From Candidatus Kapaibacterium sp. (GTDB lineage Bacteria > Bacteroidota > Ignavibacteria > Kapaibacteriales > NICIL-2), in contig BPHK01000001.1 of NCBI GenBank assembly GCA_026003495.1, positions 940,579 through 1,004,578 on the forward strand: a DNA stretch of 64,000 nt. The letters run 5' to 3'. Shown here in pieces: positions 4,055 through 39,476 of the stretch. The notes below the pieces were generated by a model, which did not search any database, was not told the origin of the DNA, and was given only the letters and a program-made list of their open reading frames with translations. Position 1 is the stretch's first letter. Every line of letters begins with the position of its first letter. The position numbers and the translations under genes are program-made.

Positions 4055-9171
<5,117 letters not shown>

Positions 9172-9233
9172 GGGGAACTTTGGCACTTGCCCTGTGAGTT
9201 TGGGTTCCATCACGTCAGAATGGATCCTAGACG

Positions 9234-11698: not shown

Positions 11699-12419
11699 GT
11701 TCGGTAGTGGTGATCGCGTTCTCGTCGCACTGCATGGCTGGGGTGGCGATCACCGGACGTTCAAACCATTGGAAGGGCATCTTCCCGAAGGGTGGAGGAT
11801 TGTTGCGCTGGACTTGCCAGGCTACGGCCAGTCGAAGCCGATCGAACCATTTTCGCTCGACGGTGTTGTGGCAGCAATTGTCTCGGTCATCATGCAATAT
11901 CCAGTACCAGTCGAACTCATTGGGTCCTGCAGTGGAGCGGCCCTTGGAATGGAAGTTGCACTCCGCATTCCCGAACGCATCAGGAGAATTATTGCGCTCG
12001 ATTTGTTCGCGTACATGCCGCTGTACTTCCGCTTCTTCACAATACCGATGGTAGGTTCGATCGGATACCGGCGTACGTTCCACTCTGCTCTTGGGCGTAC
12101 TGCACTCAATGCACTGCTCTGGTTCCGGCGGACTCGGCAATCGAATCTGATGGAATCGTTCGCAGATAAAAACCCCGAGGTAACGCTCAGCTACCTTGGT
12201 GCACTTGCAACGCTCGAAGGTCCGCAACGTTACGCGTCCTTGCCGATGCCTGTAGAGTTCGTGTACGGTGCACGGACTTTTCGAGCTGTTCGCCGGTCAG
12301 TGGAGCGATGGAAGGCAACTCTTCCTCGCTTGAGGGTACATCGGATTGAAGGTGCTGGCCACCTTGTGCTTGACGAAGCCCCGCAGGCGGTTGCAGCAAT
12401 CATTCGGGATGTGCGATGA
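11682..12419 (+). CDS. alpha/beta hydrolase fold protein embedded in the carotenoid operon
   Basis: 245 aa; HGWGGD oxyanion region and a nucleophile elbow IGSCSGAALG; the start overlaps crtI by 17 nt and the stop overlaps the GT2 start (ATGA). Confidence 0.7.
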   Translation: MIHAVEFGSGDRVLVALHGWGGDHRTFKPLEGHLPEGWRIVALDLPGYGQSKPIEPFSLDGVVAAIVSVIMQYPVPVELIGSCSGAALGMEVALRIPERIRRIIALDLFAYMPLYFRFFTIPMVGSIGYRRTFHSALGRTALNALLWFRRTRQSNLMESFADKNPEVTLSYLGALATLEGPQRYASLPMPVEFVYGARTFRAVRRSVERWKATLPRLRVHRIEGAGHLVLDEAPQAVAAIIRDVR

Positions 12420-15009: not shown

Positions 15010-15751
15010 AGGCATTGCAGGACTATTCATCCTTCTGCTTGTCGGCGGTGCATTGACCTCGCCCCAAACAAGCGACATCATGTTTTTGCGCCGCTATGGA
15101 GAAATGCTCTTTCTCTGGGTGGCAGCTGCGGTCATTGCGCTTTTCCCGCATCGAGTGCTGGCGCAACTACTGGGTGCTGCATTGATCGGCTTTGCAAGTG
15201 AGATCATCGGGGTACGCTACGGCGTTCCCTATGGCGCCTATCACTACACACCGACGTTGGGCGCCAGTATAGCTGGAGTTCCACTGGCGATGGTAGCGGC
15301 GTGGATTGTGCTCCTTTCATACGCCTGGCAGCGTGCATCGGGACTGACACGCTCTCTTTGGACTGCACGGCTACTTGCGGCGTTGTTGATGGTAGCATTC
15401 GATTTGCTCATTGATCCCGTCGCGATCGGTCCGATGAAGTTGTGGGTTTGGCAAGAAAGCGGTCCATACTATGGAGTTCCGCTAGTCAACTTCCTCGGAT
15501 GGTTCGCGGTAAGCTACGTGTCACTTCTGTTTGTTCGCGCACCATTGCTGAGCGACTACCGTGTTGCTCATCTTGTCGGGGTGGCGGTGTTGACGTTCTT
15601 TGTTGTGCTCGCGCTTCGAAATGGATTGCTTGCAGCGGCGTCTGTTGGGGCAGTGCTCATCGGTATTGATGTGCTCTGCTGCAGGCGATGTTGGCAGCAG
15701 TATTTTGCGAGTGCACTCAAACGTGTAGAATTGCTTCTGCGATTGCGATGA
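14993..15751 (+). CDS. polytopic membrane protein, CruF-like carotenoid 1,2-hydratase candidate (carotenoid biosynthesis protein family)
   Basis: 252 aa with about 6 TM helices; start overlaps the desaturase stop by 17 nt; co-operonic with the crt genes. Confidence 0.45.
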   Translation: MKYIRRGIAGLFILLLVGGALTSPQTSDIMFLRRYGEMLFLWVAAAVIALFPHRVLAQLLGAALIGFASEIIGVRYGVPYGAYHYTPTLGASIAGVPLAMVAAWIVLLSYAWQRASGLTRSLWTARLLAALLMVAFDLLIDPVAIGPMKLWVWQESGPYYGVPLVNFLGWFAVSYVSLLFVRAPLLSDYRVAHLVGVAVLTFFVVLALRNGLLAAASVGAVLIGIDVLCCRRCWQQYFASALKRVELLLRLR

Positions 15752-17718
15752 TGTGTCTGGTGTGGGGGCTTCTCCTGCTCGGTTGGTGCAGCAACTGGGC
15801 GCAGGAAATTTCCTCGCCGACTCGCTTTATCGAGCAGCCCTTCGATGTTCTCGAGTATCGCGCATTCCTTGCGCTGGACTCGCTGCCAGCACCGGTGCTG
15901 GGCGAAAGTGCGTGTACGATGGTTGCTCGCTGGCGCGCCGTTCCCGACACGCTCCGCTTTCATCTCCGCGGGCTTGAAGTGCTCCGCTGCGAATACCTCC
16001 AAGACGACCGCGCTCTTCCGGTGTCGTGGCAGACGCGCGGCGCGCCAACGGATGCAACGTTCCACTATGCAGTCCCTGCACTTCCTTCACACCACCAAGG
16101 CGATACTGTTGCGCTGCGCATCACCTTCCGTGGCACAATGACGGGAGAACCGACCGTTGGCGGTGTATCCTGGGGCGGGGTCCAGCGCGAGGGTGCCATC
16201 GTTTATGCGCTGGGGGTGGGGTTCTACAACAATTACGTTTCTGCAACGCAGCACTGGCTGCCGTGCTACGACCATCCATCCGACAAAGCGCGATTTGACC
16301 TGACATTCCGCGTTCCGCGCTCGTACGTCGTAGCCAGTGGCGGACAGGAATTCCCCGTGCGTGATTCTGCGCAGTGGCGTCTTTTCCGGTTTCGTTCGGA
16401 CTATCCAGCGGCAACGTATCTGCTGACGTTCGCAGCGATACCGGAGAGCACCGTCGCTATCCTGCGCGATGACGCGTCGCTTCCGTATCCGATTGTGCTT
16501 TACGCTCGGCGTGCGGATTCGGCAGCGACTCGGCGAAGCTTTCGGTTGCTCCCACAGATGGTGACGGCGTTCGAGCGTCGTTTCGGAGCTTATCCGTTCG
16601 AAAAAGTTGGCTACGTGATGACGCAGAAAGGTGCCATGGAGCACCAGACGATGATTTCATACCCAACCTCGCTGGCTCGCAGTGGTGATACGGTCAATCT
16701 CGTGGCAGCGCATGAACTGGCGCACCAATGGTTCGGCGATTGTGTCACACCGTTTGACTTCCGCGATGCATGGTTCAACGAGAGCTTTGCAACGTTCGCT
16801 GAATCGCTCTGGCGCGAAGAGCTTGGTGGGACAAGCGCGTATCTCCACGAGCAGCAGCGAAAGATCACTGCCTACCTGAGCCAGTATGCAAAGCCGGGCA
16901 ATCCGCTCTTCGAAGGCATTCTGACGATGTACGATTTCGACCGCCGTCCTCCATCGTCGAACTATCCCCACGTCATCTACGAAAAGGGCGCTGCAGTGCT
17001 CGGTATGCTCCGTGCAGCGATCGGCGATAGCCTCTTTTTCCGGTGGTGTCGCACGCTGCTCGAGCGCTACCGCTATGGCAACGTTGCGCTCGACACAGTG
17101 GAACAGTTACTTGGTGAGTTGACGGGACAGCAGAACTTCGCCACGCAGTTTTTCAGCGAGTGGATACGTGGTAGGGGATGGCCAGTCCTCGCAATCGACG
17201 CGCTGAGCGAGCCATCGGCGTTTGGAAGGATTGCCACGCTCCACATTCGCCAAACGCAGCCCGATTCGCTGGGTATCTACACGACATTGCCGCTCGAGCT
17301 GAGCTTCATTGGTGCCGATACCGTCCATCGCATCGTCACGATCACTGCACGCGAGCAGACGGTAGTTCTCGATTCACTCAACACGTTTGGTGCCATCGCG
17401 GTCAACATCGGACCAAGAGTGCGGTCGCTTGTGCAGCTAGCTCAGACCCCGACTGTAACCGAGGTGCGTTCTGAGGGTGCACTGCCACCGCTGCGTGTCT
17501 TTCCAAACCCAGCAACGGAAACAGTGATGCTCTCCATTTCCAGCAACATTGCTGGTCCGGTGATGCTCTACGATGCGCGTGGCACTTGTATTCGGCATGT
17601 AGGAGGCGCAGGGATGCTTGCACTCTCGACGCAGGACCTTGCCGCAGGAACGTACTACGCTGTTGCGCGCGATCGAGCGCACCGGCTCCATGTTGCAGCA
17701 TTCGTCGTCCTGCGCTAG
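15748..17718 (+). CDS. secreted M1-family zinc aminopeptidase with C-terminal T9SS sorting domain
   Basis: ORF 15688..17718 trimmed to ATGATG at 15748 (overlaps the CruF-like stop); HELAHQWFGD zinc motif plus downstream NESFATFAE; KGAMEHQTM (GAMEN-type exopeptidase motif); the C-terminal about 80 aa are a T9SS-type beta-sandwich tail (VFPNPATETVMLSI...YYAVARD...). Confidence 0.75.
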   Translation: MMCLVWGLLLLGWCSNWAQEISSPTRFIEQPFDVLEYRAFLALDSLPAPVLGESACTMVARWRAVPDTLRFHLRGLEVLRCEYLQDDRALPVSWQTRGAPTDATFHYAVPALPSHHQGDTVALRITFRGTMTGEPTVGGVSWGGVQREGAIVYALGVGFYNNYVSATQHWLPCYDHPSDKARFDLTFRVPRSYVVASGGQEFPVRDSAQWRLFRFRSDYPAATYLLTFAAIPESTVAILRDDASLPYPIVLYARRADSAATRRSFRLLPQMVTAFERRFGAYPFEKVGYVMTQKGAMEHQTMISYPTSLARSGDTVNLVAAHELAHQWFGDCVTPFDFRDAWFNESFATFAESLWREELGGTSAYLHEQQRKITAYLSQYAKPGNPLFEGILTMYDFDRRPPSSNYPHVIYEKGAAVLGMLRAAIGDSLFFRWCRTLLERYRYGNVALDTVEQLLGELTGQQNFATQFFSEWIRGRGWPVLAIDALSEPSAFGRIATLHIRQTQPDSLGIYTTLPLELSFIGADTVHRIVTITAREQTVVLDSLNTFGAIAVNIGPRVRSLVQLAQTPTVTEVRSEGALPPLRVFPNPATETVMLSISSNIAGPVMLYDARGTCIRHVGGAGMLALSTQDLAAGTYYAVARDRAHRLHVAAFVVLR

Positions 17719-19392
17719 GTGATGCAGCGATTGCGTGTTGCGTTTCTCTGGCACTTCCATCAGCCGGACTACCGGCGCGGGAAGATGGCGCTCCTGCCGT
17801 GGGTTCGACTCCATGCGACGAAAGACTACGTAGAGTTGCCGGCGATCCATCGCGAATTTCCTTCGCTGCGGCTGACGTATAATCTGACGCCAATCCTTGT
17901 AGAACAGCTGGAGGCGCACGCTGCTGGGCAGTGTGCCGATGAGCATTTGGTGGTGGCATCACTGCCGGAACATCGTTGCATAGAGAACGCGGAGAGCATG
18001 CTCCGATGGGGATTTGTCGGTCATGCACCACGCATGATCGAGCCGTTTGTACGCTACCGCGAACTCTGGGAAGAAGCACAGTCGGGCAAATGGAAGACGT
18101 GGTCGGCGCGCGAGTGGCTTGATTTGCAAGTTTGGATGCGCCTTGCTTGGTTAGGAACAACGACGCGCGAGATACGGAGCATTGCAAAGCTTCTCGAAAA
18201 AGGCAGCAGCTTTACAGCCGATGACCGCGCTATCACGATTGCGGTTGAGCACGAGCTCCTAGCGAACGTTCTCATGCGATTGCGTGAGCTTGCAGTCGCA
18301 GGTCTTGCTGACATCAGCTGCTCGCCGTACTATCATCCCATCCTGCCACTGCTGTGCGATACCGACGTTGCTGCCGAGGTAGATTCGGACATTGAGCGGC
18401 TCGAGCCTCGGTTTGCTTGGCCAGAGGATGCACTCGAGCAACTCCGACGCGCGCGTACGTACATCGAGCAGCAGATGGGAATTTCCCCACGCGGGATTTG
18501 GCCGAGTGAAGGCAGCATCAGCGATGCTGCGCTGGCTGCAATTGCTGCAAGTGGTGCTGAGTGGACAGCAACCGACCAAGTTCTCCTTGAGCGGAGCATC
18601 GTGCCACCGTCTGCAAGCTGGCTCTACCAGCCTTTTGTGTGGGAATCACCAAGCGGGCAGCGGCTTGCAGTGTTCTTCCGGGACCACACGCTCAGTGATG
18701 CAATCGGTTTTGTCTATAGCTCGTGGGATGCGCACTCTGCAGTGCGGGATTTTCTCGAGCGTCTTGATGCCATTCGCACCCGGATTCTCGACGAGCAAGG
18801 TGCAGCGTTTCTCGATCGCGCAGTCGTGACGGTTATTCTCGATGGCGAAAACTGCTGGGAATACTACGAGGGCAATGGTGCACCCTTTCTCCGTGCACTC
18901 TACGGGGCACTCACCAGCGATGAACGCTTCGAAACAGTCCTGCTTGGCGAGTGTGCCCGTCGTGCCTTAGACTCAGCCGATACGCCTGTGCTCCGACATA
19001 TCGCCCCTGGCTCGTGGATTGGCGGGAGCTTCCGCATCTGGATCGGCGATGGAGAAGATCGTTCCGCATGGTCACTTCTACGCCAGGTTCGGCATGCATT
19101 CGAAGAGCAGAAGCATAGCTTGACAGATTTCCAGCGGGATGATGCATACCGTCACATCCTCGCTGCGGAAGGAAGCGATTGGTTCTGGTGGTTTGGGCCT
19201 GAGCACCGCGCAGCATTCCGCAGCGTGTTCGATGAGCTTTTCCGCGAGCATCTTCGCATGGCGTGGGCTGCAATGGGCATGGATGCTCCTCCGGAACTAA
19301 CCCAGCCAATCATGACCAGTGAGAGCTCAGTTAGCCCGTGGGGCGCGATGCACCCTGCTACTGCTCCCACTGAATTTCGGCGCGGCGGTTGA
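17719..19392 (+). CDS. glycoside hydrolase family 57 protein (alpha-glucan acting)
   Basis: 557 aa; N-terminal FLWHFHQPDYR signature of GH57; the GTG/ATG start abuts the peptidase stop. Confidence 0.8.
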   Translation: MMQRLRVAFLWHFHQPDYRRGKMALLPWVRLHATKDYVELPAIHREFPSLRLTYNLTPILVEQLEAHAAGQCADEHLVVASLPEHRCIENAESMLRWGFVGHAPRMIEPFVRYRELWEEAQSGKWKTWSAREWLDLQVWMRLAWLGTTTREIRSIAKLLEKGSSFTADDRAITIAVEHELLANVLMRLRELAVAGLADISCSPYYHPILPLLCDTDVAAEVDSDIERLEPRFAWPEDALEQLRRARTYIEQQMGISPRGIWPSEGSISDAALAAIAASGAEWTATDQVLLERSIVPPSASWLYQPFVWESPSGQRLAVFFRDHTLSDAIGFVYSSWDAHSAVRDFLERLDAIRTRILDEQGAAFLDRAVVTVILDGENCWEYYEGNGAPFLRALYGALTSDERFETVLLGECARRALDSADTPVLRHIAPGSWIGGSFRIWIGDGEDRSAWSLLRQVRHAFEEQKHSLTDFQRDDAYRHILAAEGSDWFWWFGPEHRAAFRSVFDELFREHLRMAWAAMGMDAPPELTQPIMTSESSVSPWGAMHPATAPTEFRRGG

Positions 19393-20584
19393 GCGCTCGA
19401 CCTTCCTCGCTCTCGTTCGGAGCCATGGGACGAGTTCTCCCATAGCCTTCCGTTGTCATGCGGCTTGTATCAACGCCACGGCGGCGGAGGTAGTCGCGCA
19501 CCGACTGCGCGCGTGCAAGAGAAAGCTGCTGATTGTACGCATCACTCCCGATGGAGTCGGTATGGCCTGCGATTGTGATGCGCCGCGCACGCTGCAAGAT
19601 CTGCACAATGCTATCGGGTACTGCAAGCGGTGGGAGAGCGCTGCTATTGAACGCAAAGTGGACGGTCCACGAAGACAGTGGCAGCGGCTGGTACTTTTTT
19701 TCGAGGGTGGCAAGGTAAATCCCCATCCGTGCTGCACCATCATCGCTCGAAATGTACACAGCGGTATCGCCAGTAGGAAAAAGCCACCAGCAGAGGTCCA
19801 TCTCCGGCGTGTTGATTGGTTCGGGCAGGACAATTGGCTGTGACCACTGCTCCCAGGAGTCGTCGAGCCGTCGGGTCATGACGATGTCGTACTTGCCGTT
19901 GGAGCCATAGCCAGTCGTTGCGTAGTAGAGCGTTCGTCCGTCGCGAGCAAGGAAGGGAGAACTCTCCATGCCCGGTGTATTGACCGTCGAGCCGAGATTG
20001 CGCGGGGTTGTCCAAGTGAGGGATTCCCCAATACGGTGCGAAACGTAGAGGTCCAGCCCACCGAAGGAATCAGGCCCTTGGAGCGAGAGGATCAGCGTCC
20101 GCATATCCGGGGTCATGAAGGCGTAGTAGTAGCTGGAGCGGTTCGTGTAGCCTTCGATGGTGATGGGTTCGAATGTCCAGGTCTGGCCGACTTGCCGTGC
20201 CAGCACGAAATGCTCGGTTTCGCCGTTTCCGCTGCCGCGCTGGACGAGCGCAGTCTTTCCATCAGCGGCGAAACCGAAGAGGACGTCGCTATACGGCGTG
20301 TTGAGCGCATCGAGCCGTTCCGGCGTCCCCCACGTAGAATCGCTCGTGCGGCGAGCAAACCAAATGTCGTCGGGATCACTCGAACCGCCGACATTGCCGG
20401 GGAAGTACTTCCGGGAAAAGTAGAGGATGCTCCCATCAGGAGAGAGCACTGGCGCAACGACGGGCTGGTGCGCATTGATCTGGCCGGGGATGCGCCACTT
20501 GCGCGTGATCGTCGGAAGGTCGCCATCGCGTGCAATTGCCAGCACGCATGCAGCAGCAAGCATGCAACTTAGTCGAGTCCACAT
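19358..20584 (-). CDS. OmpA-family outer-membrane protein with beta-propeller (TolB-like) repeats
   Basis: ORF trimmed to MWTRLSCMLAAACVLAIA (signal peptide); C-terminal OmpA/MotB peptidoglycan-binding domain (ITIAGHTDSIGSDAYNQQLSLARAQSVRDYL...NRRAEI). Confidence 0.7.
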   Translation of the reverse strand: MWTRLSCMLAAACVLAIARDGDLPTITRKWRIPGQINAHQPVVAPVLSPDGSILYFSRKYFPGNVGGSSDPDDIWFARRTSDSTWGTPERLDALNTPYSDVLFGFAADGKTALVQRGSGNGETEHFVLARQVGQTWTFEPITIEGYTNRSSYYYAFMTPDMRTLILSLQGPDSFGGLDLYVSHRIGESLTWTTPRNLGSTVNTPGMESSPFLARDGRTLYYATTGYGSNGKYDIVMTRRLDDSWEQWSQPIVLPEPINTPEMDLCWWLFPTGDTAVYISSDDGAARMGIYLATLEKKYQPLPLSSWTVHFAFNSSALPPLAVPDSIVQILQRARRITIAGHTDSIGSDAYNQQLSLARAQSVRDYLRRRGVDTSRMTTEGYGRTRPMAPNESEEGRALNRRAEIQWEQ

Positions 20585-21867
20585 CGCTTGTAGAGGTAAG
20601 AAATGTTCGACAACGATCGCTCGCCGCGAAAGATTGCGTCGAGGTCCTCTGGCTGGAGATATTGACGAATGAGCGGCTCTTCCCAGAGTGTCTGGCGGAG
20701 ATGTCGCCCTTCGTCCCATGACTTCATTGCTGCTCGTTGGACGGCAGCGTAGGCATCTTGGCGGGATACGCCACGACGGACCAATTCCAAGAGGACGGTT
20801 TGCGAATAGATCACCCCGTGCGAGCGTTCGATCGTTTCGCGCATTCGATCGGGGTAAACGACTAATTGCTCGACCAGTTCTGTCGCCAGTGCGAGCATGT
20901 AGTCGAGCGCGATGGTGGAATCCGGGCAGATAACGCGCTCGACGCAGCTGTGGGAGATATCGCGCTCGTGCCAGAGCGCGTTGTTCTCGAGGGCTGCCAG
21001 TGCGTTCGAGCGAAGAAGGCGTGCCAGCCCGCAGATACGTTCGCTGATGATGGGATTGCGCTTGTGTGGCATTGCCGAAGAGCCTTTCTGCCCAGCGCTG
21101 AAGTACTCTTCGGCTTCTCGGACTTCCGTCCGCTGGAGATGACGGATTTCGAGCGCGATTTTCTCAACAGAACTGGCGATAATTGCCAGCGTGCAGAGAA
21201 ATTCCGCGTGCCGATCGCGCTGGATGACTTGCGTTGTGATGGGATCTGGCGTGAGCCCGAGCTTGGCGCAGACGTACTCTTCAACGCGTGGATCGAGATG
21301 TTCGAACGTTCCAATTGCACCGCTGAGCTTGCCAACGGCAATCGTCTCGATGGCACGGCGGAGCCGTTCGATATTTCGGAGGCATTCCTGGCGGTAGAGC
21401 AGAAACTTCAGTCCAAAGACCATCGGTTCAGCGTGGACGCCGTGGGTACGTCCGACGCAGAGTGTCGAGCGGTGCTCGCGTGCTCGACGCTCCAGCGCAG
21501 CAGCGAGCTGCTCTAAGTCGCCGAGAAGTAGCTCGCCCGCTTGCTTGAGCTGGACGGCAAGGCAAGTGTCGAGCACATCGCTGCTGGTCATGCCTAAGTG
21601 CAACCAACGTGCGGCGGGGGAGCCGACGTTTTCGGTAACGTTGGTCAAAAACGCGATGACATCGTGCTTTGTTTGGCGCTCGAGTTCCGCAATTCGCTCG
21701 ACGGAAAAGCGTGCTTTTGCACGAAGCTCTTCATAGTCTTGGCGAGGGACAATGCCAAGCTCGACGTGTGCTTCGACCGCTAGAAGCTCGATCTCGAGCC
21801 AGATGCTGAATTTGTTTTCATCGCTCCAAATCGCACCCATCGCCGGGCGCGTGTACCGTTCGATCAT
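20569..21867 (-). CDS. purB: adenylosuccinate lyase
   Basis: 432 aa starting MIERYTRPAMGAIWSDENKF; fumarate-lyase family signature region GSSAMPHKRNP. Confidence 0.9.
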   Translation of the reverse strand: MIERYTRPAMGAIWSDENKFSIWLEIELLAVEAHVELGIVPRQDYEELRAKARFSVERIAELERQTKHDVIAFLTNVTENVGSPAARWLHLGMTSSDVLDTCLAVQLKQAGELLLGDLEQLAAALERRAREHRSTLCVGRTHGVHAEPMVFGLKFLLYRQECLRNIERLRRAIETIAVGKLSGAIGTFEHLDPRVEEYVCAKLGLTPDPITTQVIQRDRHAEFLCTLAIIASSVEKIALEIRHLQRTEVREAEEYFSAGQKGSSAMPHKRNPIISERICGLARLLRSNALAALENNALWHERDISHSCVERVICPDSTIALDYMLALATELVEQLVVYPDRMRETIERSHGVIYSQTVLLELVRRGVSRQDAYAAVQRAAMKSWDEGRHLRQTLWEEPLIRQYLQPEDLDAIFRGERSLSNISYLYKRCGLD

Positions 21868-29794: not shown

Positions 29795-29868
29795 CGGAGT
29801 GTAGCGCAGCCCGGTAGCGCACACCTTTGGGGTGGGTGTGGTCGCGGGTTCAAATCCCGCCACTCCGA
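29795..29868 (+). tRNA. tRNA-Pro (anticodon GGG)
   Basis: Hand-folded cloverleaf: acceptor CGGAGTG/CACTCCG, D-stem GCGC/GCGC, anticodon stem CACCT/GGGTG with loop TTGGGGT, T-arm GCGGG-TTCAAAT-CCCGC, discriminator A; 74 nt, no encoded CCA. Confidence 0.85.
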
Positions 29869-29957
29869 CTGGTGGCGCCTGCAGCAATGCACGCGCCATT
29901 TTTGTTCGGAGGCTAACTTTGCTGCCGGAACATGGTTTCAGTTGGAGCATCCACGCA

Positions 29958-31907
29958 GTGAACCTTTCGCGTTTTGGTTACCTCCGCGTTGCAGCATGCA
30001 GTCCTGCAGTGCGCGTTGCTGATGTCGAGTTCAACTGTCGAGCAATCGCAGAGGCATATCGTGCGCTTCGCAGTGTTGGGGTGCAGATTGCAGTGTTTCC
30101 AGAAATGGCGACCGTTGGGTATACGTGCGCTGATTTAGTGTTGCATTCGCCCCTGCTGGATGCGTCCGATCGGGGACTGTACGCGCTTGCAACGCTGGTA
30201 CGTTCGCTCGGTGGTGTGCTCGCCATCGGTGCACCAATCCGTGCATGGGGCCGACTCTACAACTGTGCGGTTGTCATTAGTAGCAGCGGAATTGTGGGGG
30301 TTGTCCCCAAGCAATTCATCCCGAACTACGGAGAGTACTACGAGCAGCGTTGGTTTGCGCGACCGAGCGGGCAGCTGCCATCGCAGGTAGCAATCGCCGG
30401 CCAACAGGTGCCGTTTGGTCCAGGGCTTGTCTTCGAGGCACGCGTCGGTGAGATGCACGCAGCAACGATTGGTGTCGAGCTGTGCGAAGACCTATGGGCC
30501 CCAGCACCGCCGAGCGAAGCGTTAGCGTGCGCGGGAGCAGACGTGTTGCTCAATCTTTCCGCTAGCAATGAAGTGCTCGGGAAAGCGGACTATCGGCGCG
30601 ACTTAGTGCGAATGCAGTCGGCGCGGTGTATTGCTGGCTATGTCTATGCCTCTGCCGGTGCGGGTGAATCAACAACGGACACTGTCTATAGCGGCCACTG
30701 CATTATTGCAGAAAACGGCGTGATCCTCGGAGAGAATCGTTCGTTTTCGTTCGACACTGAGTGGGTTATGGCTGATCTCGATTGTGAGCGGTTGCAGTAC
30801 GACCGTCGCCGGATTGCGACGTTCGGACAGCAAGCGATGCCCCCGCTGCAGCGGATGCAAGTAGCAATTCCTGCGCTTGAAGGAGAGCGGCCTCATCGCG
30901 TCATTGATGCGTCTCCTTTTGTGCCGGCCAATCCATCCAAGCGCGCCGAACGATGCCAGGAGATAGCAGCAATTCAAGAAACAGCGCTCGCAAAGCGTCT
31001 GCTCCATACTGGGCTGCGTGCTGTTGTTCTCGGACTTTCGGGAGGACTCGACTCAGCATTAGCACTCTTGGTGAGTGTGGGGGCATTCGACCGACTCGGC
31101 TACGATCGCAAGGGAATTCATGCCGTGATATTGCCTGGACCTGGTACGTCCGAACGAACACGCCAGCAGGCTGAAGCACTCGCTCGTGCGTTGGGTGCCA
31201 CCGTGCAAATCATTTCCATCACTGATGCTGTTGAACACCATCTCGATGCTCTTGGTCACACCGGTGAGCACGATGTTCTCTTCGAGAATGCACAAGCACG
31301 AGAGCGCACGCAGATTCTCATGGACCTTTGCCACAAACACCACGCTCTCATGGTCGGTACCAGCGATTTATCCGAGCTTGCCCTCGGCTGGACAACGTAC
31401 GGCGGTGACCACATGAGCATGTATGGTGTCAACGCAGGCGTGCCAAAGACACTCGTTCGGTATATCATCGAGTGGTGGGCCCAGGCACTCGGCGATGCAA
31501 AAGCAAAAGACGCGCTGGCAGCAATTTTACAAACGCCGATTAGTCCAGAATTGCTGCCGCCCAATCCCGATGGCTCAATTGTGCAGCGCACTGAAGAAGT
31601 GCTCGGACCGTACCAAGTTCACGACTTTTTCCTGTACAACCTCATCCGCTGGGGATATGCTCCTGAGAAATTACTTGAGCTTGCGGTCTGGGCGTTCGAG
31701 GGGAAATACGCCCGCAAGGAACTGGACCAGTGGCTGTCAACGTTCCTTGATCGCTTCTTTGCCAACCAATTCAAACGGTCATGCTTACCAGATGGTCCCA
31801 AAGTTGGGTCGGTTGCTCTTTCCCCACGGGCGGATTGGCGTATGCCAAGCGACGCTCTTCCGGTGGTGTGGCTCGCCAGTGGCGGGGAAATGATGCCGCC
31901 GTCGTAG
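29958..31907 (+). CDS. nadE: glutamine-dependent NAD+ synthetase (nitrilase domain + NAD synthetase domain)
   Basis: Track ORF 29832..31907 overlaps tRNA-Pro, so the in-frame GTG at 29958 (VNLSRFGYLRVAACSPAV) is taken as start; N-terminal CN-hydrolase domain (VFPEMATVGY...) and C-terminal PP-loop ATPase (VVLGLSGGLDSAL). Confidence 0.85.
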   Translation: MNLSRFGYLRVAACSPAVRVADVEFNCRAIAEAYRALRSVGVQIAVFPEMATVGYTCADLVLHSPLLDASDRGLYALATLVRSLGGVLAIGAPIRAWGRLYNCAVVISSSGIVGVVPKQFIPNYGEYYEQRWFARPSGQLPSQVAIAGQQVPFGPGLVFEARVGEMHAATIGVELCEDLWAPAPPSEALACAGADVLLNLSASNEVLGKADYRRDLVRMQSARCIAGYVYASAGAGESTTDTVYSGHCIIAENGVILGENRSFSFDTEWVMADLDCERLQYDRRRIATFGQQAMPPLQRMQVAIPALEGERPHRVIDASPFVPANPSKRAERCQEIAAIQETALAKRLLHTGLRAVVLGLSGGLDSALALLVSVGAFDRLGYDRKGIHAVILPGPGTSERTRQQAEALARALGATVQIISITDAVEHHLDALGHTGEHDVLFENAQARERTQILMDLCHKHHALMVGTSDLSELALGWTTYGGDHMSMYGVNAGVPKTLVRYIIEWWAQALGDAKAKDALAAILQTPISPELLPPNPDGSIVQRTEEVLGPYQVHDFFLYNLIRWGYAPEKLLELAVWAFEGKYARKELDQWLSTFLDRFFANQFKRSCLPDGPKVGSVALSPRADWRMPSDALPVVWLASGGEMMPPS

Positions 31908-31991
31908 ATTTGCGGCGTGGGTACGAGGAGAGTCAACTAATCATCGGCAATGCCGATAGTTCTTATTACCGAATAACGGTGAAGGTGCTCA

Positions 31992-32714
31992 ATGAAACGA
32001 GCTATCTCTTCTCTGCCAACGGATGCTATTCGCGTGGCGATTGCCGATGACCACGAGCTCGCGCGTGTAGGACTCTACCGCATGCTCTCGAGCGATAGTA
32101 GCGTCGAAATTGTCGGCGAAGCTTCTGATGGGGACCAGCTTCTTGCACTTGTCGAAAAACAGAAACCTGATGTGGTTTTTCTCGACATCTTCATGCCACG
32201 CCGCAATGGATTGGAAACTGCGCGAGAACTGCGCTCACGTATTCCGACGGGCAAACCCTACATCATCATGCTTACAACGTTCGAGGACTATTCCTACCTT
32301 CAGCAAGCCTTGGCAATCGGAGCGGATGGGTACCTTTCCAAAGATGTCAGCCGCCAGGAATTGCTCTCGTCACTACGATCAGTGGTCAAAGGGGAGCGAG
32401 TTTTCTCGCGTTCGATTCTGGCGCTCATGCAGGGCATGCGCTCCAAACACTCGGCGGAATCGCTCTCAACGGTCACGCTGACAAAGCGCGAAGAGGAAAT
32501 CCTTGAGCTTGTCGCCCAAGGATTGACAAGTAATGAAATCGCTGATCGCCTCTTCATCAGTCCTCGGACCGTTGAGACGCACCGTGCGCATTTGATGGAG
32601 AAGCTCGGTGCAAAAAATGCAGCCGCACTGGTGCGTTATGCAATCCTGCATTCAATCTACTTTCCCGGTCACGGTCGCCCCTCGAATGCCTCCTCTGCGG
32701 AGAGCGCTTGCTAA
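31992..32714 (+). CDS. two-component response regulator, NarL/LuxR family (REC + HTH_LuxR)
   Basis: 240 aa; REC domain (VAIADDHELARVG...DVVFLDIFMPRRNGLE) and C-terminal LuxR HTH (LTKREEEILELVAQGLTSNEIADRLFISPRTVETH). Confidence 0.85.
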   Translation: MKRAISSLPTDAIRVAIADDHELARVGLYRMLSSDSSVEIVGEASDGDQLLALVEKQKPDVVFLDIFMPRRNGLETARELRSRIPTGKPYIIMLTTFEDYSYLQQALAIGADGYLSKDVSRQELLSSLRSVVKGERVFSRSILALMQGMRSKHSAESLSTVTLTKREEEILELVAQGLTSNEIADRLFISPRTVETHRAHLMEKLGAKNAAALVRYAILHSIYFPGHGRPSNASSAESAC

Positions 32715-32767
32715 AGTAGCTACGTACGGTGTAGGGCAGCGCGAAAGAAATTACGTAGTAGTACGTA

Positions 32768-33889
32768 TTGCTGGCCAGGAGGGAAACCGCCAAATTTGCA
32801 ACCGTTCTGCAGAGCACATTGCGTAGGCACTCGATGAGTCTGCAAGAGGCTAACTCTGACGACGAGAGTTTCACTCCTGAGATAGGTTTAGCGATGCGCG
32901 TTCGAGATCGGCGGTATCACGTGCTCATAGTCATTCTCTTGTTGATCTGGGGTCCCCCTCAAGGGTGGGCTGATGGCAATGTCGGCATTGGTACGACGTC
33001 TCCCGATACATCGGCATTGTTGGAGCTTCGCTCGGTTCGGAGCGGGCTGCTTATCCCACGAATGACGACTGCACAGCGGGATGCGATTATTCTTCCGGCA
33101 AAGAGTCTCCTGATTTTCAACACTACAACCAATCGCTTCGAGTACAACGACGGCACCCCCGCTGCACCGAATTGGGTGCCATTCCTCACCGGAAGTGGCA
33201 GTTTTTGGTCGTTGCAAGGTATCCCAAGGTGTTGATTCTGACGGCTCGGAATCGAGCAATTACAATCAAATGCATATTCACAAGCAAAGGTTCCGTCATA
33301 TGCAGTGGGGCTTTCTATGTCTGGCGCGATTTTCTCAATCGCGGCTCCCTTACCAACAGTGGGCTTATCGAGGTGGGGCAGCCATGAACCAACGGTTGTG
33401 CCAATGCCAACCCGAGTCTAATCCTGCCCGCTGGTGCACAAGGGCAACCCAAGCTGCTGCGTGGTTATAGAGCACCGGTCCGTGGTTTCTTCCTCAACCA
33501 TGCATCGAACATCGGCGGGGCAAGTGTCAATAGCAGCGGCGTCCTCGATCTCCGCGCGGATGGTCGCTCGGAATCTCCATTTGCTATCGTTGGCTCTGGG
33601 AGTGCAATTTTAGTCACTGTACCTACAGCGCGGCTTCGCATCGCGAACGCTTCGCAGCTCAATGTTGATGGTTCCAGCCATCTGGTCGTTTCGAGCACGT
33701 GGCAACCCGCGGCGTTGACCATTGACTCTGGTTCGACACTCCGTATCAGTGCAACGGGAACACCGGGACGCTTTTCGTTGCTCGACTTATCCATAATGGA
33801 TTTTGTGGGTATGAACTTAACACTGCACTGTTCCTGCTCAATGCGATGTATGAATGCGGCACTACGGTCCGCTATCGTGGATCGTAGCT
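32768..33889 (+). pseudogene. probable remnant of a secreted surface / fibre-like protein gene, disrupted by a frame change near 33200 and an in-frame TGA at 33385
   Basis: Frame-2 ORF 32768..33235 carries a signal peptide and the motif GNVGIGTTSPDTSALLEL...GLLIPRMTTAQRDAIILPAKSLLIFNTTTNRFEYNDGTPAAPNWVPF, which resembles the N-terminal modules of Bacteroidota tail-fibre-like surface proteins. Frame 1 then holds a 168-codon stop-free stretch (33388..33889) with beta-helix-like sequence (ILVTVPTARLRIANASQLNVDGSSHLVVSSTWQPAALTIDSGSTLRISATG), but with no start codon and no C-terminal part. Confidence 0.3.
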
Positions 33890-34316
33890 AACCCAGTCCT
33901 CCAGGCTACTGCTGCAGAGCCGAACCATCGCTACGGTATTCTCGAAACATAGGGAGGTAATAAGCGAGCCAATGGCGACGTGCACGTTGGCTGCGGACTG
34001 TTAGTCAATACCTGCTCAACTCCGCATACCATCTCGATGGTGATTATACGCTCACAGTGCACCATGCCGACACTGCTTTCACCACGATTTGGCAAGATTC
34101 TGCATTTGCTGATTGCCAGTCTCTGTCAGAGGTTCCTGGGCGCTTCCGCCATGTTTAGCAGCACGCGTCATCGTTGACCAAAGCACCAACGGTGCTGCTT
34201 AGAAATTCGCTGCAGATGCGATAGGTCCTTCCGCTGACAGGCTTTCATTTGCATTTGGGCGTGATGTTACGCTCGAGTATTAGGCTCGGCAGGAACTGGA
34301 GCTTCGGTCGCGGCAG

Positions 34317-35021
34317 GTGCAACATGCTGAGCAACTAGCGCTGGAAGCGAATGCATCGAAATCAGCATTCATACAGCGGCTAACGCGCTATCTACGTTCG
34401 TCGCTGGTGACTACGCTCGAAGGAGTGCACCACATGGTACTACAGATGGATTCCAGCAACGAGCGACAGACGCGTTTTGTCAAACTTGCCAATGAAAGCT
34501 CAGACCGCTTATTTGCCATCGTCAGTGATTTGCTCGATGTCGCTGGTGAACATTCTGTCAACGGTCCTGATACGGTCGAACTGGGACGTATCCTCCATCA
34601 GGCTCAGCAGACCTACCGCACATGGGGCGGAAGCTGCATCTTCATCGAACGGAGTGTCGAACACGGAACACGCCTTGCTGCCGAAGAACGCGTTGTCGCC
34701 GATGCATTTGCAAATCTTTTCGCTGCGCTAACCGCTGGGACGCGAAGCGGTGCGATTGAGCTAACGACAATTATCAATGCCCAAGAACAGGTGCTCGAAG
34801 TGCAAGTGCTCGCTCCGTATAGCCTCGAGGTTGCAGAGCTGATCAGAGTATTCAACCGCTCGCAGCAGCACTTGGTGGAAGCACTCGCACACGACCGCGA
34901 TGACATCCTCTTCCGGTTCGGGATTGCTGCATCGCAGATACGCCGCGTTGGCGGTACGTTCAGCGTCGAGACGCTCGGTCAGGAAGGGAATGTCGCCCTG
35001 ATCACTCTCCCGCTTGCATGA
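34317..35021 (+). CDS. truncated histidine-kinase-like protein (DHp + degenerate HATPase_c, no sensor or TM, canonical phospho-acceptor His absent)
   Basis: 234 aa, GTG start with an in-frame TAG at 34281; a HisKA-like helix reads EANASKSAFIQRLTRYLRSSL where SHELRTPL is expected (only later His are in EGVHHM); the C-terminal region GIAASQIRRVGGTFSVETLGQEGNVALITLPL matches the HK ATP-lid/G2 region but with degenerate D/G boxes. Confidence 0.5.
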   Translation: MQHAEQLALEANASKSAFIQRLTRYLRSSLVTTLEGVHHMVLQMDSSNERQTRFVKLANESSDRLFAIVSDLLDVAGEHSVNGPDTVELGRILHQAQQTYRTWGGSCIFIERSVEHGTRLAAEERVVADAFANLFAALTAGTRSGAIELTTIINAQEQVLEVQVLAPYSLEVAELIRVFNRSQQHLVEALAHDRDDILFRFGIAASQIRRVGGTFSVETLGQEGNVALITLPLA

Positions 35022-35126: not shown

Positions 35127-38100
35127 CTATCGAACGATGAGCAACTGTCGTGTTATGCGAACAGGACCGCTTTCGTAGCGGACGAAATAGAGTCCGCTGC
35201 TCATGTCTGCAATCGGCACGTCGAGTTGATAGGTGCCTGCGGAAAGCTCACCATCGAGTACTGTCCGCACCGGATTACCGAGTGCATCGTAGAAGCGAAT
35301 GCTTGTGGGTGCATCGAAGCCAACACCGAATCGAATTGTGACCGCATCACTTGTCGCTGGGTGGGGGCTAACGTCCACGATTGAGAACGTTGTCGTGGAG
35401 ACTTTGACAAAGCGTCCGTCAATGAAGCAAGTCGTCGGCAGCAAACTATCGCCGAGCACAGTAGGAATTACGCACCGCCGCTCACTGTTGCCGGCACCAT
35501 ATGGGATGCATTCGGCGATCGCAGTTGTAGCGAAGCGCTGCTCAGCAAGATCGCTAATGAGCACAGTAAAGCGGAGCGTTGCAACGGCGCCGTTGGCAGC
35601 AATTGGCGTCTGCCCGCGACCTTGAATGAGAAGCTCCGCAGTACTCGTTGTGCCATCGAGTGATTCTTGCGCTGTTAGTTGCCAAGTTGCATCAAGCACT
35701 TCTCCGCGCGTGATGCTGTTGGGCACGTAGAGGAGCTGCTTTGCGTTGTAACGAACGCGAATGTCGAATCCGTACACTTGCGCTCCTCCCCAGTTGAGAG
35801 AACGGACTTGCACTTGAGCGCCTGCATCGTTTCCGCTTCGGAAGTTGAACAGTGGGGAATCGAATGTCGTCCGTACTTCGATTGGGATAACGTACCCTAC
35901 CCCGCGGAGCTCAGCGGTATCGGCATCGCCGCCACGATATTCGACGCGAATAAATGCGCTATAGCCACGTGGTTGGTCAGGGAGGAATCGTACCGCAATT
36001 GGGCGTGTTTGCCCAGCCGATACCACCAGCGGATTGGCAGGCGTTGGCGGAGATTCGAGTGCGAAGTACGCAGCATCGGGTCCGAGGATTGTTGCACCGA
36101 TGACTTCGACGTCAGACGCGGGAGTGCCGGCAGGTGCGGTATTGGTCACTGTGGCGGCACCGAGGGGTTGATCACACGTGGTAACCGAGCCAAAGTCGTA
36201 TCCTTCCAGCGTCGGTTGGTTGACGGTATAGCCATAGCCAATTAGCTCGACGATCGTCTCTGCTTGCCCGGTCGGCTCTGGGACGGGAGGCTCGGCGTTG
36301 TGGAGGATACGCACAAGCGCTTTCCGCTCTCCTGTCCCTGATGGGCGAAATTGAACTGCCAAGAGCGCAGGCGCAGCACCAATCGGAAGTGTGGCATCTT
36401 GGAGGGCATCGAGCAACTGGAAATCCTCCGGGTAGAGGTTCCGATTTGGATCGCGCGTCGGGAGCAGCTCAACGGCATAAACGCGGAGGTCTGCTGATTG
36501 GCTCGTATTCGTGATGGTAACAAATTGTTCGGTGTTGCCGGCTTGGCTTTGGGTCGTTGTCCCCACCAGGATTGGTGTGCGGAAGATCGCACCCGTTGCC
36601 TCGATTTTTTCGAGGTAACCAAATGCAGTCAGTGCATCCGACCGGGTACCGACGCCAGTGAAGTCACCCAGGAGGCGACTTGTCAGATCAAATTCCGCTT
36701 GGGGTGTGCAGGCGATCTGAACGCGAACGACGTCTTGACCGTTGGGGAAGAGTGTAAACGGTGGCTGACGATCGGCACCGACAATGCGGAAATTCTGCTC
36801 GTTGGCAGGAAGGTACACAGCGGTGCATTGCACTTGATCTTGACCGTCGTTGCGAACGAGGCCATTGAGCACTTTTGTGGTACCGAGCCGAACGCGTCCC
36901 CAGCTGTTTCCAATGACAATTGGCCCTGGAGAGATTGATTGGCCTTTCCACTCCGACCATGGCTTGTCGCCTCCAGAGCCGGGCGCATCGCTCATGAAAC
37001 GGACGGTAATGGAGAAGGTGCTATCGTTTGTCGGGGCAAAACACATTTCCTTGAGAAAGACTTCGCCGCCCGGCGGAATCGTTATCGGCAGTGGCGGATC
37101 GGTCGGGTCGGTGAGACTAAATGGTGGCTGAATCGTCGAGCGATCGATGTCGGTGATTGTCAGTGTATCGGTGCCAGGGTTGCGGATGCGTAGTCCACGA
37201 GCTAACTGCTGAGAATGGCAGCGGGATTGACCCGATGGGACAGTTCCTGCGTCCCAATCATCGACGATGATGTGTGGCTGGATGCCACGCCCGAGAACCT
37301 GTACAGCGAACGGCGCACATTGCTCGACGACCAAGAGGGAATCCTCATCGCGCTCATTGTCGCGAACATGCTCAGTTTGGGGCGTGTAGCGGAGGCGGAC
37401 TTGAATGCTTTGTCGCGGATACAGTGCTAAGCCACCCGGTGGAATTGTCGGCTCCACAATTGCGAATGCTGACCCCTTTTTCAGACGGAGGTCCGTGATG
37501 AGAAATGTTGAATCTGCATTGTTCGTAATGGTTGCAGTTATCTCCGTAGATCGTCCGACACGAACGTTCCCGGCATCAATAGGATTGGGGCGGATCGAAA
37601 CCTTCGGTGCAACCCAGAAGACGCTGTCATAGCTGAAGTTGAGTGCACGATCGCCGACGTAGAAGTACGCTTGTGCATCTTTGGTTTTATCTATGACCCG
37701 CAGGCGGAATTTGACGATGCTGTTTTTCTGATCTTGCGGAAGGATGTTATCCGTGATGAGATTGCCATCAGCCTCGAGTAATTCAATTGCGTAGTTGAAC
37801 GATGGCTTGCCCTCGACAAAGTCGATGGCATTGATTCCGGTTCCAATATGGTTGAGGGTGTCGTTGATTGGAAAATCTTGTCCTGTCTCACGTGCAGTGT
37901 AGATGTAGTCACCGCATTCTTGTTCGCGGCTTAGTGGCGGTGGAATGGTATCGAATTCATCGAGTCTGCGGTAGGCGGTGGCAGCAGGCCACCCGTAGGA
38001 ATCGAAGCTGCCCCAACCGTAGATGTAGCCACCAAACGGTGCGTTTCCTTCGATCAGGTGCGCACCGTTGTTGACGAAGAGACGGGCGTAGTGAAAGTTC

Positions 38101-39476
38101 GTGCCAGGGATGCGGTTGCCGAGAATGTCCGGAGCAAGGGTAGTTACAGGGACGCCGTCAACCTTGATCGAGCGAAGGTCTTTCTGCTCTGGATCGTTGA
38201 TATCAGCAGATACGATCAAGTTGAAACGGTGGCGACTATAAGCGGGATTCGATGGGGCTTGGAAAATAGTAGCCTTCGTGTACTGCTCGATGGGGACAAC
38301 GTAGATCATGAATGGGTCGAACATGTTATTGTTGTCCCATTCCGCGGAGGCGGAGTACTGCATCAGGAAAAATGGTTTGTTTGATTTCCAGACCGACATG
38401 CCGCGTACACCGGTCGCTTGGCCAGGGCCAGTGACGACGAGCCCTGCATCCGGGAGCGAGCGTACCTCGCCACGCTTGAGACCTGGCATGATGAATTCTT
38501 CGAGCTTCTGTTTGGTCCTGAAATCGTACGTCGTACACACGATGTTCGTCCCATCCTGGAGAGCGACGACACGGAAAAAGTCCCCATAACCGCCACGTTC
38601 ATACTCGATGCTGACGTACGATCGCCCCCACATCGACGTCGGCGGGATCATTTCGATCATATGGTCACGGCCATTGAAAATATCGAAGCTTGGTACCATC
38701 GTCCGTTGGTGATAGCTAATGAACCCAATTGGTTTGTTTGCTCGGACGATGCTACCGGAAAGATCGAATTCCCCTCGAGTTGTGCCGTCTCCTTGGACAA
38801 GGTAGCACTGGCCAGGCTGTAATGTCACTGTCCAGGTTGCGCCGTACCGGCGTCCCTTTTCCGTCCGTGCTGATGTTATTCCGTGATCCCCGATATTCGG
38901 TTTGCGAAGCTCAATACTGACACGTGTATCCCTGTAGGCTGCAACAATAGCAAAACCACCTTTCCAGTTTCGGAATTCGCGAAAGTCTGGCCAGCCGAGG
39001 TGGATGTACTCATTGCCCCACGATTGGACCGGAATTGCTAAGTAACCATCAGAACTCACCTGCTTTCCATTGTAAACGTAAACAGAAACTGGGTCATCTG
39101 CGACAATCCGTACTGCAAGATCGAGCGGAACTTCACTTTCCTCTGCCTCTGGCATCGGCACGTCACGCAACGTCAGCACTGTAACGCGCATAGCTTGCAC
39201 GTTGAAGACTTTCTGGAAGCCCAGGCCTGGGATTTCGTACCGAAATCGGGTATTCCGTGATGACGTTACGTAGATCTCCCGGGCTGTTACCGGTTGCTGA
39301 GGACTATCGTTGAGCGGAAAGCAGAAATAAAATTCTTTCCCTTGCGAGCCGTTCGTCAAGAGCTCAGCGGCGGTGGGAATGCGTCCCGTACCCCGGGGTG
39401 CACGAAGCTCCTGAGCACTCGCAGCACTGTAGAGCAGGAGTGTCGCAATGGCCCAATGAGCAGCATTTCGAATCAT
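35127..39476 (-). CDS. very large secreted cell-surface protein with C-terminal T9SS sorting domain (function unknown)
   Basis: 1449 aa; signal peptide MIRNAAHWAIATLLLYSAASAQE; no catalytic motif recognised; the C-terminal about 85 aa (FSIVDVSPHPATSDAVTIRFGVGFDAPTSIRFYDALGNPVRTVLDGELSAGTYQLDVPIADMSSGLYFVRYESGPVRITRQLLIVR) resemble a Por/T9SS CTD. Confidence 0.75.
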   Translation of the reverse strand: MIRNAAHWAIATLLLYSAASAQELRAPRGTGRIPTAAELLTNGSQGKEFYFCFPLNDSPQQPVTAREIYVTSSRNTRFRYEIPGLGFQKVFNVQAMRVTVLTLRDVPMPEAEESEVPLDLAVRIVADDPVSVYVYNGKQVSSDGYLAIPVQSWGNEYIHLGWPDFREFRNWKGGFAIVAAYRDTRVSIELRKPNIGDHGITSARTEKGRRYGATWTVTLQPGQCYLVQGDGTTRGEFDLSGSIVRANKPIGFISYHQRTMVPSFDIFNGRDHMIEMIPPTSMWGRSYVSIEYERGGYGDFFRVVALQDGTNIVCTTYDFRTKQKLEEFIMPGLKRGEVRSLPDAGLVVTGPGQATGVRGMSVWKSNKPFFLMQYSASAEWDNNNMFDPFMIYVVPIEQYTKATIFQAPSNPAYSRHRFNLIVSADINDPEQKDLRSIKVDGVPVTTLAPDILGNRIPGTNFHYARLFVNNGAHLIEGNAPFGGYIYGWGSFDSYGWPAATAYRRLDEFDTIPPPLSREQECGDYIYTARETGQDFPINDTLNHIGTGINAIDFVEGKPSFNYAIELLEADGNLITDNILPQDQKNSIVKFRLRVIDKTKDAQAYFYVGDRALNFSYDSVFWVAPKVSIRPNPIDAGNVRVGRSTEITATITNNADSTFLITDLRLKKGSAFAIVEPTIPPGGLALYPRQSIQVRLRYTPQTEHVRDNERDEDSLLVVEQCAPFAVQVLGRGIQPHIIVDDWDAGTVPSGQSRCHSQQLARGLRIRNPGTDTLTITDIDRSTIQPPFSLTDPTDPPLPITIPPGGEVFLKEMCFAPTNDSTFSITVRFMSDAPGSGGDKPWSEWKGQSISPGPIVIGNSWGRVRLGTTKVLNGLVRNDGQDQVQCTAVYLPANEQNFRIVGADRQPPFTLFPNGQDVVRVQIACTPQAEFDLTSRLLGDFTGVGTRSDALTAFGYLEKIEATGAIFRTPILVGTTTQSQAGNTEQFVTITNTSQSADLRVYAVELLPTRDPNRNLYPEDFQLLDALQDATLPIGAAPALLAVQFRPSGTGERKALVRILHNAEPPVPEPTGQAETIVELIGYGYTVNQPTLEGYDFGSVTTCDQPLGAATVTNTAPAGTPASDVEVIGATILGPDAAYFALESPPTPANPLVVSAGQTRPIAVRFLPDQPRGYSAFIRVEYRGGDADTAELRGVGYVIPIEVRTTFDSPLFNFRSGNDAGAQVQVRSLNWGGAQVYGFDIRVRYNAKQLLYVPNSITRGEVLDATWQLTAQESLDGTTSTAELLIQGRGQTPIAANGAVATLRFTVLISDLAEQRFATTAIAECIPYGAGNSERRCVIPTVLGDSLLPTTCFIDGRFVKVSTTTFSIVDVSPHPATSDAVTIRFGVGFDAPTSIRFYDALGNPVRTVLDGELSAGTYQLDVPIADMSSGLYFVRYESGPVRITRQLLIVR

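Follow-up and report, generated by a model that had tools for sequence, protein, structure and literature searches.

In the 64-kb stretch analyzed here (Candidatus Kapaibacterium sp., very likely the genome KatS3mg040; contig BPHK01000001.1, positions 940,579 to 1,004,578; called the window below), the DNA between an intact NarL-type response regulator gene and a minus-strand gene for a protein of the type IX secretion system (T9SS) is very probably the in situ remnant of a genus-conserved, seven-gene surface cluster that has been eroded by deletion in this genome. A preliminary description of the window, made from its letters alone, had seen here a histidine kinase and response regulator pair together with an adhesin gene undergoing pseudogenization, or else the scar of an excised element. 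The pseudogenization reading is borne out, because relatives have long intact genes at the same position and the remnants show disabling lesions and neutral substitutions. What decayed was more than one adhesin gene, namely a seven-gene cluster of about 12.7 kb, and the fragments come from four different genes.

The intact state of the cluster was reconstructed from relatives. A search of genomes with the NadE protein, encoded upstream of the regulator, gave three of them: bacterium HR20 (98% NadE identity; contigs L004 and L084), Chlorobiota J074 (87%), and Ca. Kapabacteria KatS3mg039 (72%; contig L006). The best reference was an 88-kb Logan contig, L086, which was reached via the cluster members of the PTL_trimer protein and the flanks of which are 97.7% identical to the window over 10.4 kb on the left and 96.8% identical on the right. 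Between the regulator and the T9SS gene, L086 contains seven intact genes (Table 1). Four large metagenome contigs (L090 to L093), with sensor identities of 66 to 100%, also carry the seven genes intact and without a change of order. All six genes within reach of the KatS3mg039 contig are likewise intact, and the order there is NadE, regulator, and the genes for proteins of 1086, 166, 735, and about 720 aa, and onward. The HR20 sequence aligns to the window at 96.9% identity until exactly position 33219 and is divergent thereafter; its PTL_trimer gene goes on from there as an intact ORF (open reading frame) of 1037 aa. The gene order of a further contig, L085, agrees as far as the locus reaches.

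Table 1. Features of the remnant locus, its neighbors, and the intact cluster of the reference contig. Coordinates are those of the window unless L086 is given.
Feature	Coordinates	Strand	Remarks
tRNA-Pro(GGG)	29795-29869		just upstream of NadE, 3.3 kb upstream of the cluster
NarL/FixJ-type response regulator, REC + GerE helix-turn-helix (HTH), intact	31992-32714	+	Pfam Response_reg E 3.5e-27, GerE E 8.8e-23
Decayed remnant, whole	32834-35021	+	between the NarL-type regulator and the minus-strand T9SS protein
Truncated PTL_trimer gene	32834-33235	+	codons 1-129 (to 33219); ortholog 949-1086 aa
Deletion junction D1	33219-33242		~2.8 kb gone (L086 10387 to ~13200): rest of PTL_trimer gene and first ~115 codons of 165-aa gene
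Tail of 165-aa gene, last ~48 codons	33242-33387	+	ends with TGA 33385-33387
Native ATG of 737-aa gene and deletion junction D2	33384-33421	+	ATGA overlap with upstream stop; from L086 13374-13880 alignment and L002 comparison
Main remnant of 737-aa beta-helix gene, codons ~157-407	33422-34153	+	L086 13865-14599, 89.9% nt identity, 3 gaps
Junction D3, ~90-nt piece of 737-aa gene, junction D4	34154-34256	+	
3' 765 nt of sensor gene, codons 457-710	34257-35021	+	L086 21851-22615, 97.0%
IgGFc-binding / T9SS C-terminal-domain protein, intact, right neighbor	35127-39476	-	1449 aa; Pfam IgGFc_binding E 1.6e-50
PTL_trimer tail-fiber-like protein	L086 10001-12850		949 aa
Genes for 165-, 737-, and 721-aa proteins	L086 12884-17725		737-aa product is a right-handed beta-helix protein
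T9SS cargo	L086		442 aa; Pfam Por_Secre_tail sub-threshold; NCBIfam T9SS sorting-domain model passes, 26.5 bits vs 23
OmpA-like anchor protein	L086		450 aa
CHASE-PAS kinase-like sensor	L086 20483-22615		710 aa; CHASE E 1.1e-20, PAS, weak HisKA

Comparison with L086 showed that an 11.46-kb stretch of the reference (10387-21850) is represented in the window by 1.04 kb (33220-34256), so that about 10.4 kb net has been lost. Four kinds of remnant are kept: the start of the PTL_trimer gene, the end of the 165-aa gene, two pieces of the 737-aa gene, and the tail of the sensor gene. The PTL_trimer remnant begins at the ATG (32834) that is also the start in the relatives and encodes 133 aa with a signal peptide. 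It has 97.7% amino acid identity to residues 1-129 of the 949-aa protein, and codon 129 is followed by five out-of-frame codons and a TGA (33233-33235). Read from a TTG, the same frame is the 155-codon ORF (32768-33235) that had been picked out before for its signal peptide and its GNVGIGTT...TTAQRDAI...YNDG motif. At the first junction (D1), the alignments of L003, L004 (HR20), L005, L086, L087, and L088 all stop at exactly 33219, and there is GG/GGTAT microhomology.

Beyond this junction, blastn matched window 33242-33394 to L086 13235-13388 at 83.8% identity, a segment in which the 165-aa gene ends and, with the ATGA overlap, the 737-aa gene begins; by tblastn, the tail of the 165-aa gene matched residues 117-166 of the 166-aa protein of KatS3mg039 (54%, E 2.7e-12). 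Deletion D2 removes about 447 nt, that is, codons ~5-154 including the signal peptide, and leaves the native ATG out of frame with the remainder of the gene. The main remnant of the 737-aa gene contains the start-less, stop-free frame noticed earlier, which runs from 33388 to 33888 with a TGA immediately upstream and has 167 codons (168 in the earlier count). About 0.62 kb is missing at D3, where there is TCCGC microhomology. The small piece that follows represents codons ~606-646 (window 34158-34248, L086 ~15215-15300, about 75% identity); it was matched by blastn to L093 4751-4842 (75%, E 4.5e-11) and by tblastn to residues 611-645 of the 735-aa ortholog. Deletion D4, near 34243-34256, is the largest at about 6.5 kb. 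It took away the end of the 737-aa gene, the whole of the genes for the 721-, 442-, and 450-aa proteins, and the first 456 codons of the sensor. The alignments of L084 (HR20), L085, L086, and L089 all start at exactly 34257. Because six relatives align up to 33219 and four from 34257, the window has the derived state.

The sensor tail contains a residual ORF of 234 aa that starts from a GTG (34317-35021), which is the kinase-like ORF without a sensor domain of the preliminary description. It is annotated as a protein of 195 aa from the ATG at 34434 (KatS3mg040_0816, GIV56048.1), and the protein record P0122 is 100% identical to the window ORF.

These fragments explain what had been described from the letters, and every element of that description was found at its place. 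The drop in coding density was confirmed. The window is about 96% covered by ORFs, and its longest run without an ORF of 90 aa or more lies at 33795-34316 (522 nt, compared to 294 nt for the second longest), a figure that counts two spurious short ORFs; leaving these out, the gap is 33236-34316 (1081 nt). The density of stops over six frames is 0.031 in the stretch, compared to 0.022 in the whole window. The approximately 430 nt of stop-rich DNA (33889-34316) do have stops in all frames, but are not anonymous DNA: they hold frameshifted remains of the 737-aa gene and, after these, the 3' end of the sensor's PAS domain. They are AT-richer only marginally, with a GC content of 53.5% against a window mean of 56.9% (standard deviation 2.2%), and a value this low occurs in 7.8% of windows of the same length. 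The same short ORFs were not found in relatives as conserved small proteins.

Point lesions are present in both pieces of the 737-aa gene and in the sensor tail. The main remnant of the 737-aa gene has 1-nt deletions near 33813, 33887, and 34039 and a TCG to TAG change at 33950-33952; the small piece has a TAG at 34200-34202; and the sensor tail has a CAG to TAG nonsense change at 34281-34283. A stop-codon intermediate common to the window and L086 at position 33950 was considered and rejected, as the closest relatives have TCG, which is one step from TAG.

The substitutions in the 737-aa remnant were polarized with three outgroups, and 39 were specific to the window whereas 9 were specific to L086. 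The window changes are spread evenly over codon positions 1, 2, and 3 (16, 11, and 12), in contrast to the third-position bias of L086 (1, 2, and 6). Changed codons were synonymous or nonsynonymous in a ratio of 27:30 for the remnant, compared to 29:2 for GyrA, 38:14 for NadE, and 32:12 for the regulator. Relative to the two closest intact copies, 35 changes in the remnant were from GC to AT and 10 from AT to GC, an excess that accounts for the slightly lower GC content of the remnant (54.5%, ortholog 57.3%). The window branch of the remnant amounts to 5.3% at all sites, comparable in magnitude to the synonymous divergence per branch in the flanks, which suggests that the cluster died early in the history that separates this strain from L086 and HR20. 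For the regulator, the window-specific changes were 25 synonymous and 5 nonsynonymous. Therefore, this gene is still constrained and is maintained as an orphan, and the decay of a kinase and regulator pair, as had been suggested, applies to the sensor half but not to the regulator, nor was the lost partner a canonical kinase (see below).

The course of the erosion was very probably as follows. In the lineage of this genome, four deletions (about 2.8, 0.45, 0.62, and 6.5 kb), at least two of them with short junction microhomology, took a net 10.4 kb or so. The approximately 1 kb of debris was then hit by three further deletions of 1 nt each, acquired two TAG codons, and drifted toward AT at every codon position, and the surviving sensor tail gained its nonsense codon. 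The loss of the cluster probably reflects relaxed or negative selection in this strain.

A broken sensor gene was also observed in another lineage. In that of L085 (JGI 3300035356), whose C-terminal module has about 81% amino acid identity, all six structural genes are whole, but the sensor (locus 8160-10420) is interrupted by a frameshift and by two stops in frame. Short ORFs of its C-terminal part, 149 to 272 aa long, recur on many contigs of up to 570 kb. The sensor therefore appears to be dispensable for keeping the structural genes. Two other candidates for independent knock-outs were dropped. Both are on Logan contigs and come from single-base gaps in homopolymers. L003, with a PTL product of 199 aa, has two such gaps (689 and 768), which fall in GG/CC and GGGG runs; in L089 one 1-nt gap near 4324, within a segment otherwise 99.9% identical to L086, splits the sensor. 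In both cases the gaps are probably read errors. The L085 lineage alone, with its sensor broken in many assemblies, was counted as a recurrent inactivation.

It might be asked whether the leftovers are partly alive, with the 133-aa signal-peptide fragment, the C-terminal module of 195 to 234 aa, or both kept as stand-alone proteins of a remodeled locus. We consider this unlikely. Both ORFs are still open, the C-terminal module has been annotated as a gene, and in the L085 lineage a C-terminal ORF of similar size (204-232 aa) is open below the broken sensor and recurs in many assemblies. However, the changes that the C-terminal module gained on the branch to the window are 7 synonymous and 8 nonsynonymous (including the stop), compared to 5 and 1 in HR20, small numbers that suggest relaxed constraint. 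The sensor fragment has lost the membrane anchor, the CHASE domain, and the PAS domain, and the PTL_trimer fragment has lost everything past its first module, a truncation that is found in no relative. The breaks in L085 appear recent relative to the divergence (omega of 0.06-0.12 in all segments), so an open ORF there needs no selective explanation. A dN/dS test of retention of the L085 C-terminal module was uninformative, since dS was saturated and omega was low in all segments. We found no positive support for residual function of the two open fragments.

KatS3mg040 is a single-contig metagenome-assembled genome (MAG), 95.9% complete at 213x coverage, which metaFlye built from PacBio HiFi reads (N50 10.5 kb); within Kapabacteria, NICIL-2 is given as both its family and its genus (PMC9671151). 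Several observations weigh against the reading of an eroded cluster. The only independent contig identical to the window, the Logan contig L001 (DRR290133; 100% over 29840-33192), ends 27 nt before D1, and this end may mark an assembly-graph branch arising from co-existing alleles or may be due to chance. An exact search of JGI metagenomes for the D1 junction (GTTGCAAGGTATCCCAAGGTG) gave 0 matches, and no independent assembly of the junction was found. Exact-product look-ups of the window ORFs of 133 and 234 aa and of P0122 returned nothing on record. No protein named KatS3mg040 was among the 15 homolog clusters of the 737-aa protein, the rest of the genome lying outside that search for a second copy of the cluster. 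Finally, the divergence of the remnant from L086 is uneven, at 5.6% in 33431-33790 and 13.5% in 33791-34153, part of which may be intrinsic fast evolution of a surface gene and not decay. In our judgment the lesions are probably real and not consensus errors, on the strength of the sequencing method and coverage given in the paper.

Very improbable is an artefact of assembly or consensus, in which strains were collapsed or mis-joined, the frameshifts are indel errors of long reads, and the cluster is really intact. The window does derive from a metagenomic assembly, the 1-nt deletion near 34039 sits in a GGG run, the halt of L001 shortly before D1 could reflect a variant branch in the assembly graph, and the apparent frameshifts of L003 do lie in homopolymers and look like errors. 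On the other side, HiFi reads of this N50 at 213x would span all four junctions, since no more than 1 kb separates these; the other two 1-nt deletions are outside homopolymers; and an artefact cannot give 39 lineage-specific, AT-biased substitutions that are blind to codon position, or three TAG codons by substitution.

That site-specific excision of about 10 kb left the scar of a mobile element or genomic island is hardly credible: the loss is large and discrete, one gene of the cluster is phage-tail-fiber-like, and there is a tRNA-Pro gene (29795-29869) 3.3 kb upstream, but NadE and the regulator stand between that gene and the cluster, the intact cluster has the GC content of its flanks (56.2% and 56.4%), it is syntenic in every relative examined (sensor identity 66-100%; NadE 72% for L006), its genes are under purifying selection (sensor omega ~0.05-0.2), its seven proteins match no integrase, transposase, or other phage structural family, the borders in the window have no tRNA and no significant direct or inverted repeats, and four separate deletions with internal debris are not one clean excision. 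Rfam, tRNA, and repeat scans of the region gave nothing significant.

The sensor itself was examined in its intact and residual forms. The window ORF matches HisKA below threshold (E 4.2e-4, 20.7 bits, gathering score 26.9). For the sensor, a match to the solved kinase 7z8n (E 1.6e-4) and weak matches to the NCBIfam PhoR and CreC models were also obtained. In the alignment to 7z8n, RLTRYLRSSL lies over ..msHeirtpl.., with Arg in the place of the phospho-acceptor His. All nine homologs from the genus have this Arg in the H-box (RLTRY[LV]RSSL), and the N, G1, and G2 boxes are missing too: the motifs NLxxNA, DTGxG, and GxGLGL are present in the canonical kinases P0233 and P0254 but missing from the genus sensors in the same alignment. 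HATPase_c had no match in the window ORF at E<=1 nor in the 710-aa ortholog at E<=0.01. The CHASE and PAS domains were found only in the 710-aa ortholog, as homology in the window begins at sensor codon 457. The gene is under purifying selection, with the omega range given above. Since even the intact relatives have no phospho-acceptor His and no ATP boxes, the sensor is, by its sequence, predicted to have been a pseudokinase before the deletion and never a canonical histidine kinase partner of the regulator.

An exhaustive search for the family gave 55 representatives at E<=1e-10, the majority of which are about 730 aa long and have this C-terminal module. The His of the H-box is preserved in many of these, and all of those sampled are without the ATP-binding boxes; the wider group of CHASE-PAS sensors is thus predicted to be a conserved pseudokinase family. 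The residue at the H-box His position was Arg in the NICIL-2 genus and Asp, Glu, Phe, or Gln in other members (P0160-P0232).

The proteins encoded by the lost genes agree with the labels that had been given to their fragments, in that 'tail-fiber-like' and 'beta-helix-like' hold for the intact orthologs. The intact PTL_trimer ortholog matches tail-fiber families of PHROG (4.8e-16 and 1.4e-13), and precomputed annotation assigns PF26696 (PTL_trimer) to the orthologs P0001 and P0127. With the local copy of Pfam, neither the 155-aa fragment nor the full 949-aa ortholog matched PF26696; the model seems to be missing from that copy, and the window keeps the first 129 residues. The long orthologs were located through synteny. 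Their lengths differ, 1037 aa in HR20 (L004 6153-9266), 1086 aa in KatS3mg039 (L006 12769-16029), and 949 aa in L086 (10001-12850), and this variation appears to be mainly in the copy number of a tandem repeat of the type DGRIDTLY.R.GR.DT.Y. The 165-, 737-, and 721-aa proteins matched no family in Pfam, NCBIfam, or PHROG. The 737-aa protein superposed on solved beta-helix proteins as a right-handed parallel beta-helix, and its family comprises only 15 clusters among 5.8 billion proteins, all from MAGs of Kapabacteria or 'Chlorobi'. Literature searches on PF26696/PTL_trimer and HRbin20 found nothing useful.

The genes on either side of the locus are intact. The regulator is 240 aa long in all relatives, is a full-length protein with REC and GerE/LuxR HTH domains, and has MctR and NarL as its best NCBIfam matches. 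Its gene is 6.4% diverged from that of L086, nearly all of it synonymous, whereas GyrA and NadE, encoded within a few kb, differ by 1.3% and 2.7%; this heterogeneity may mark a recombination boundary beside a variable locus. The right neighbor has a Por_Secre_tail match (E 5e-5, 24 bits) under the gathering score of 27 bits, and L085 has a 1449-aa ortholog in the same place. Further upstream, a long NadE ORF from a GTG at 29832 (691 aa) reads through the tRNA-Pro gene. The same spurious N-terminal extension (MGVVAGSNPATPT...) occurs in HR20 and KatS3mg039, and the true NadE is about 649 aa.

The erosion of the cluster is ordinary but well-resolved gene loss. Its consequences are mainly a matter of bookkeeping: two 'hypothetical proteins' of a high-quality MAG are gene fragments and the adjacent regulator is a true orphan, and they should be annotated as such. 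A reference that is intact and 97.7% identical makes the erosion cleanly resolved, from microhomology-associated deletions to subsequent indels, stops, and AT drift. By-products of the analysis are a conserved surface cluster with three family-less proteins and a CHASE-PAS sensor family with a degenerate kinase domain, neither of them surprising enough to alter current views.

The cluster probably forms one functional surface module. More tentatively, and somewhat short of an even chance in our view, the lost genes may be a single uncharacterized surface module largely limited to Kapabacteria, comprising a tail-fiber-like trimer, beta-helix adhesin-like proteins, a T9SS cargo, and an OmpA anchor, and governed by the NarL-type regulator and a kinase-dead CHASE-PAS sensor that signals without autophosphorylation; KatS3mg040 would then be a natural null mutant beside intact relatives in the same hot spring. 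If this is true, the strain offers a ready comparison for the function of the module, for example as an attachment device or phage receptor.

Bacterial pseudogenes reportedly decay through deletional bias, as Mira, Ochman and Moran are said to have described in 2001, and the pattern is known for Mycobacterium leprae and Rickettsia. The remnant locus resembles such decay in its intact homologs, its several deletions, frameshifts, and nonsense codons, its lost codon-position bias, and its drift from GC to AT. It differs from genome-wide reductive evolution in that one locus is affected in an otherwise compact genome, and a conspecific-level relative (by the 97.7% identity of the flanks) keeps the cluster.

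In the intact relatives, a sensor of the CHASE-TM-PAS-DHp-CA-like type and a REC + GerE regulator bracket the cluster, as in two-component systems made of a CHASE sensor histidine kinase and a NarL/FixJ regulator. Unlike the kinases of those systems, the genus sensor has Arg for His and no N, G1, or G2 box and is predicted to be incapable of acting as a canonical kinase, and only its last 254 codons are kept in the window. In joining a DHp domain to a CA-like domain with degenerate nucleotide-binding motifs, it is similar to RetS of Pseudomonas aeruginosa, to which a weak full-length alignment was obtained that is not significant (6dk7, E 0.12), whereas its sensor domains, CHASE and PAS, set it apart from RetS. 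Compared with the PTL_trimer (PF26696) tail-fiber-like surface proteins of the FCB group and with beta-helix adhesins and tailspikes (Ag43, Hap, tapirin, and the P22 tailspike protein, TSP), the cluster is chromosomal and syntenic and stands without other phage genes.

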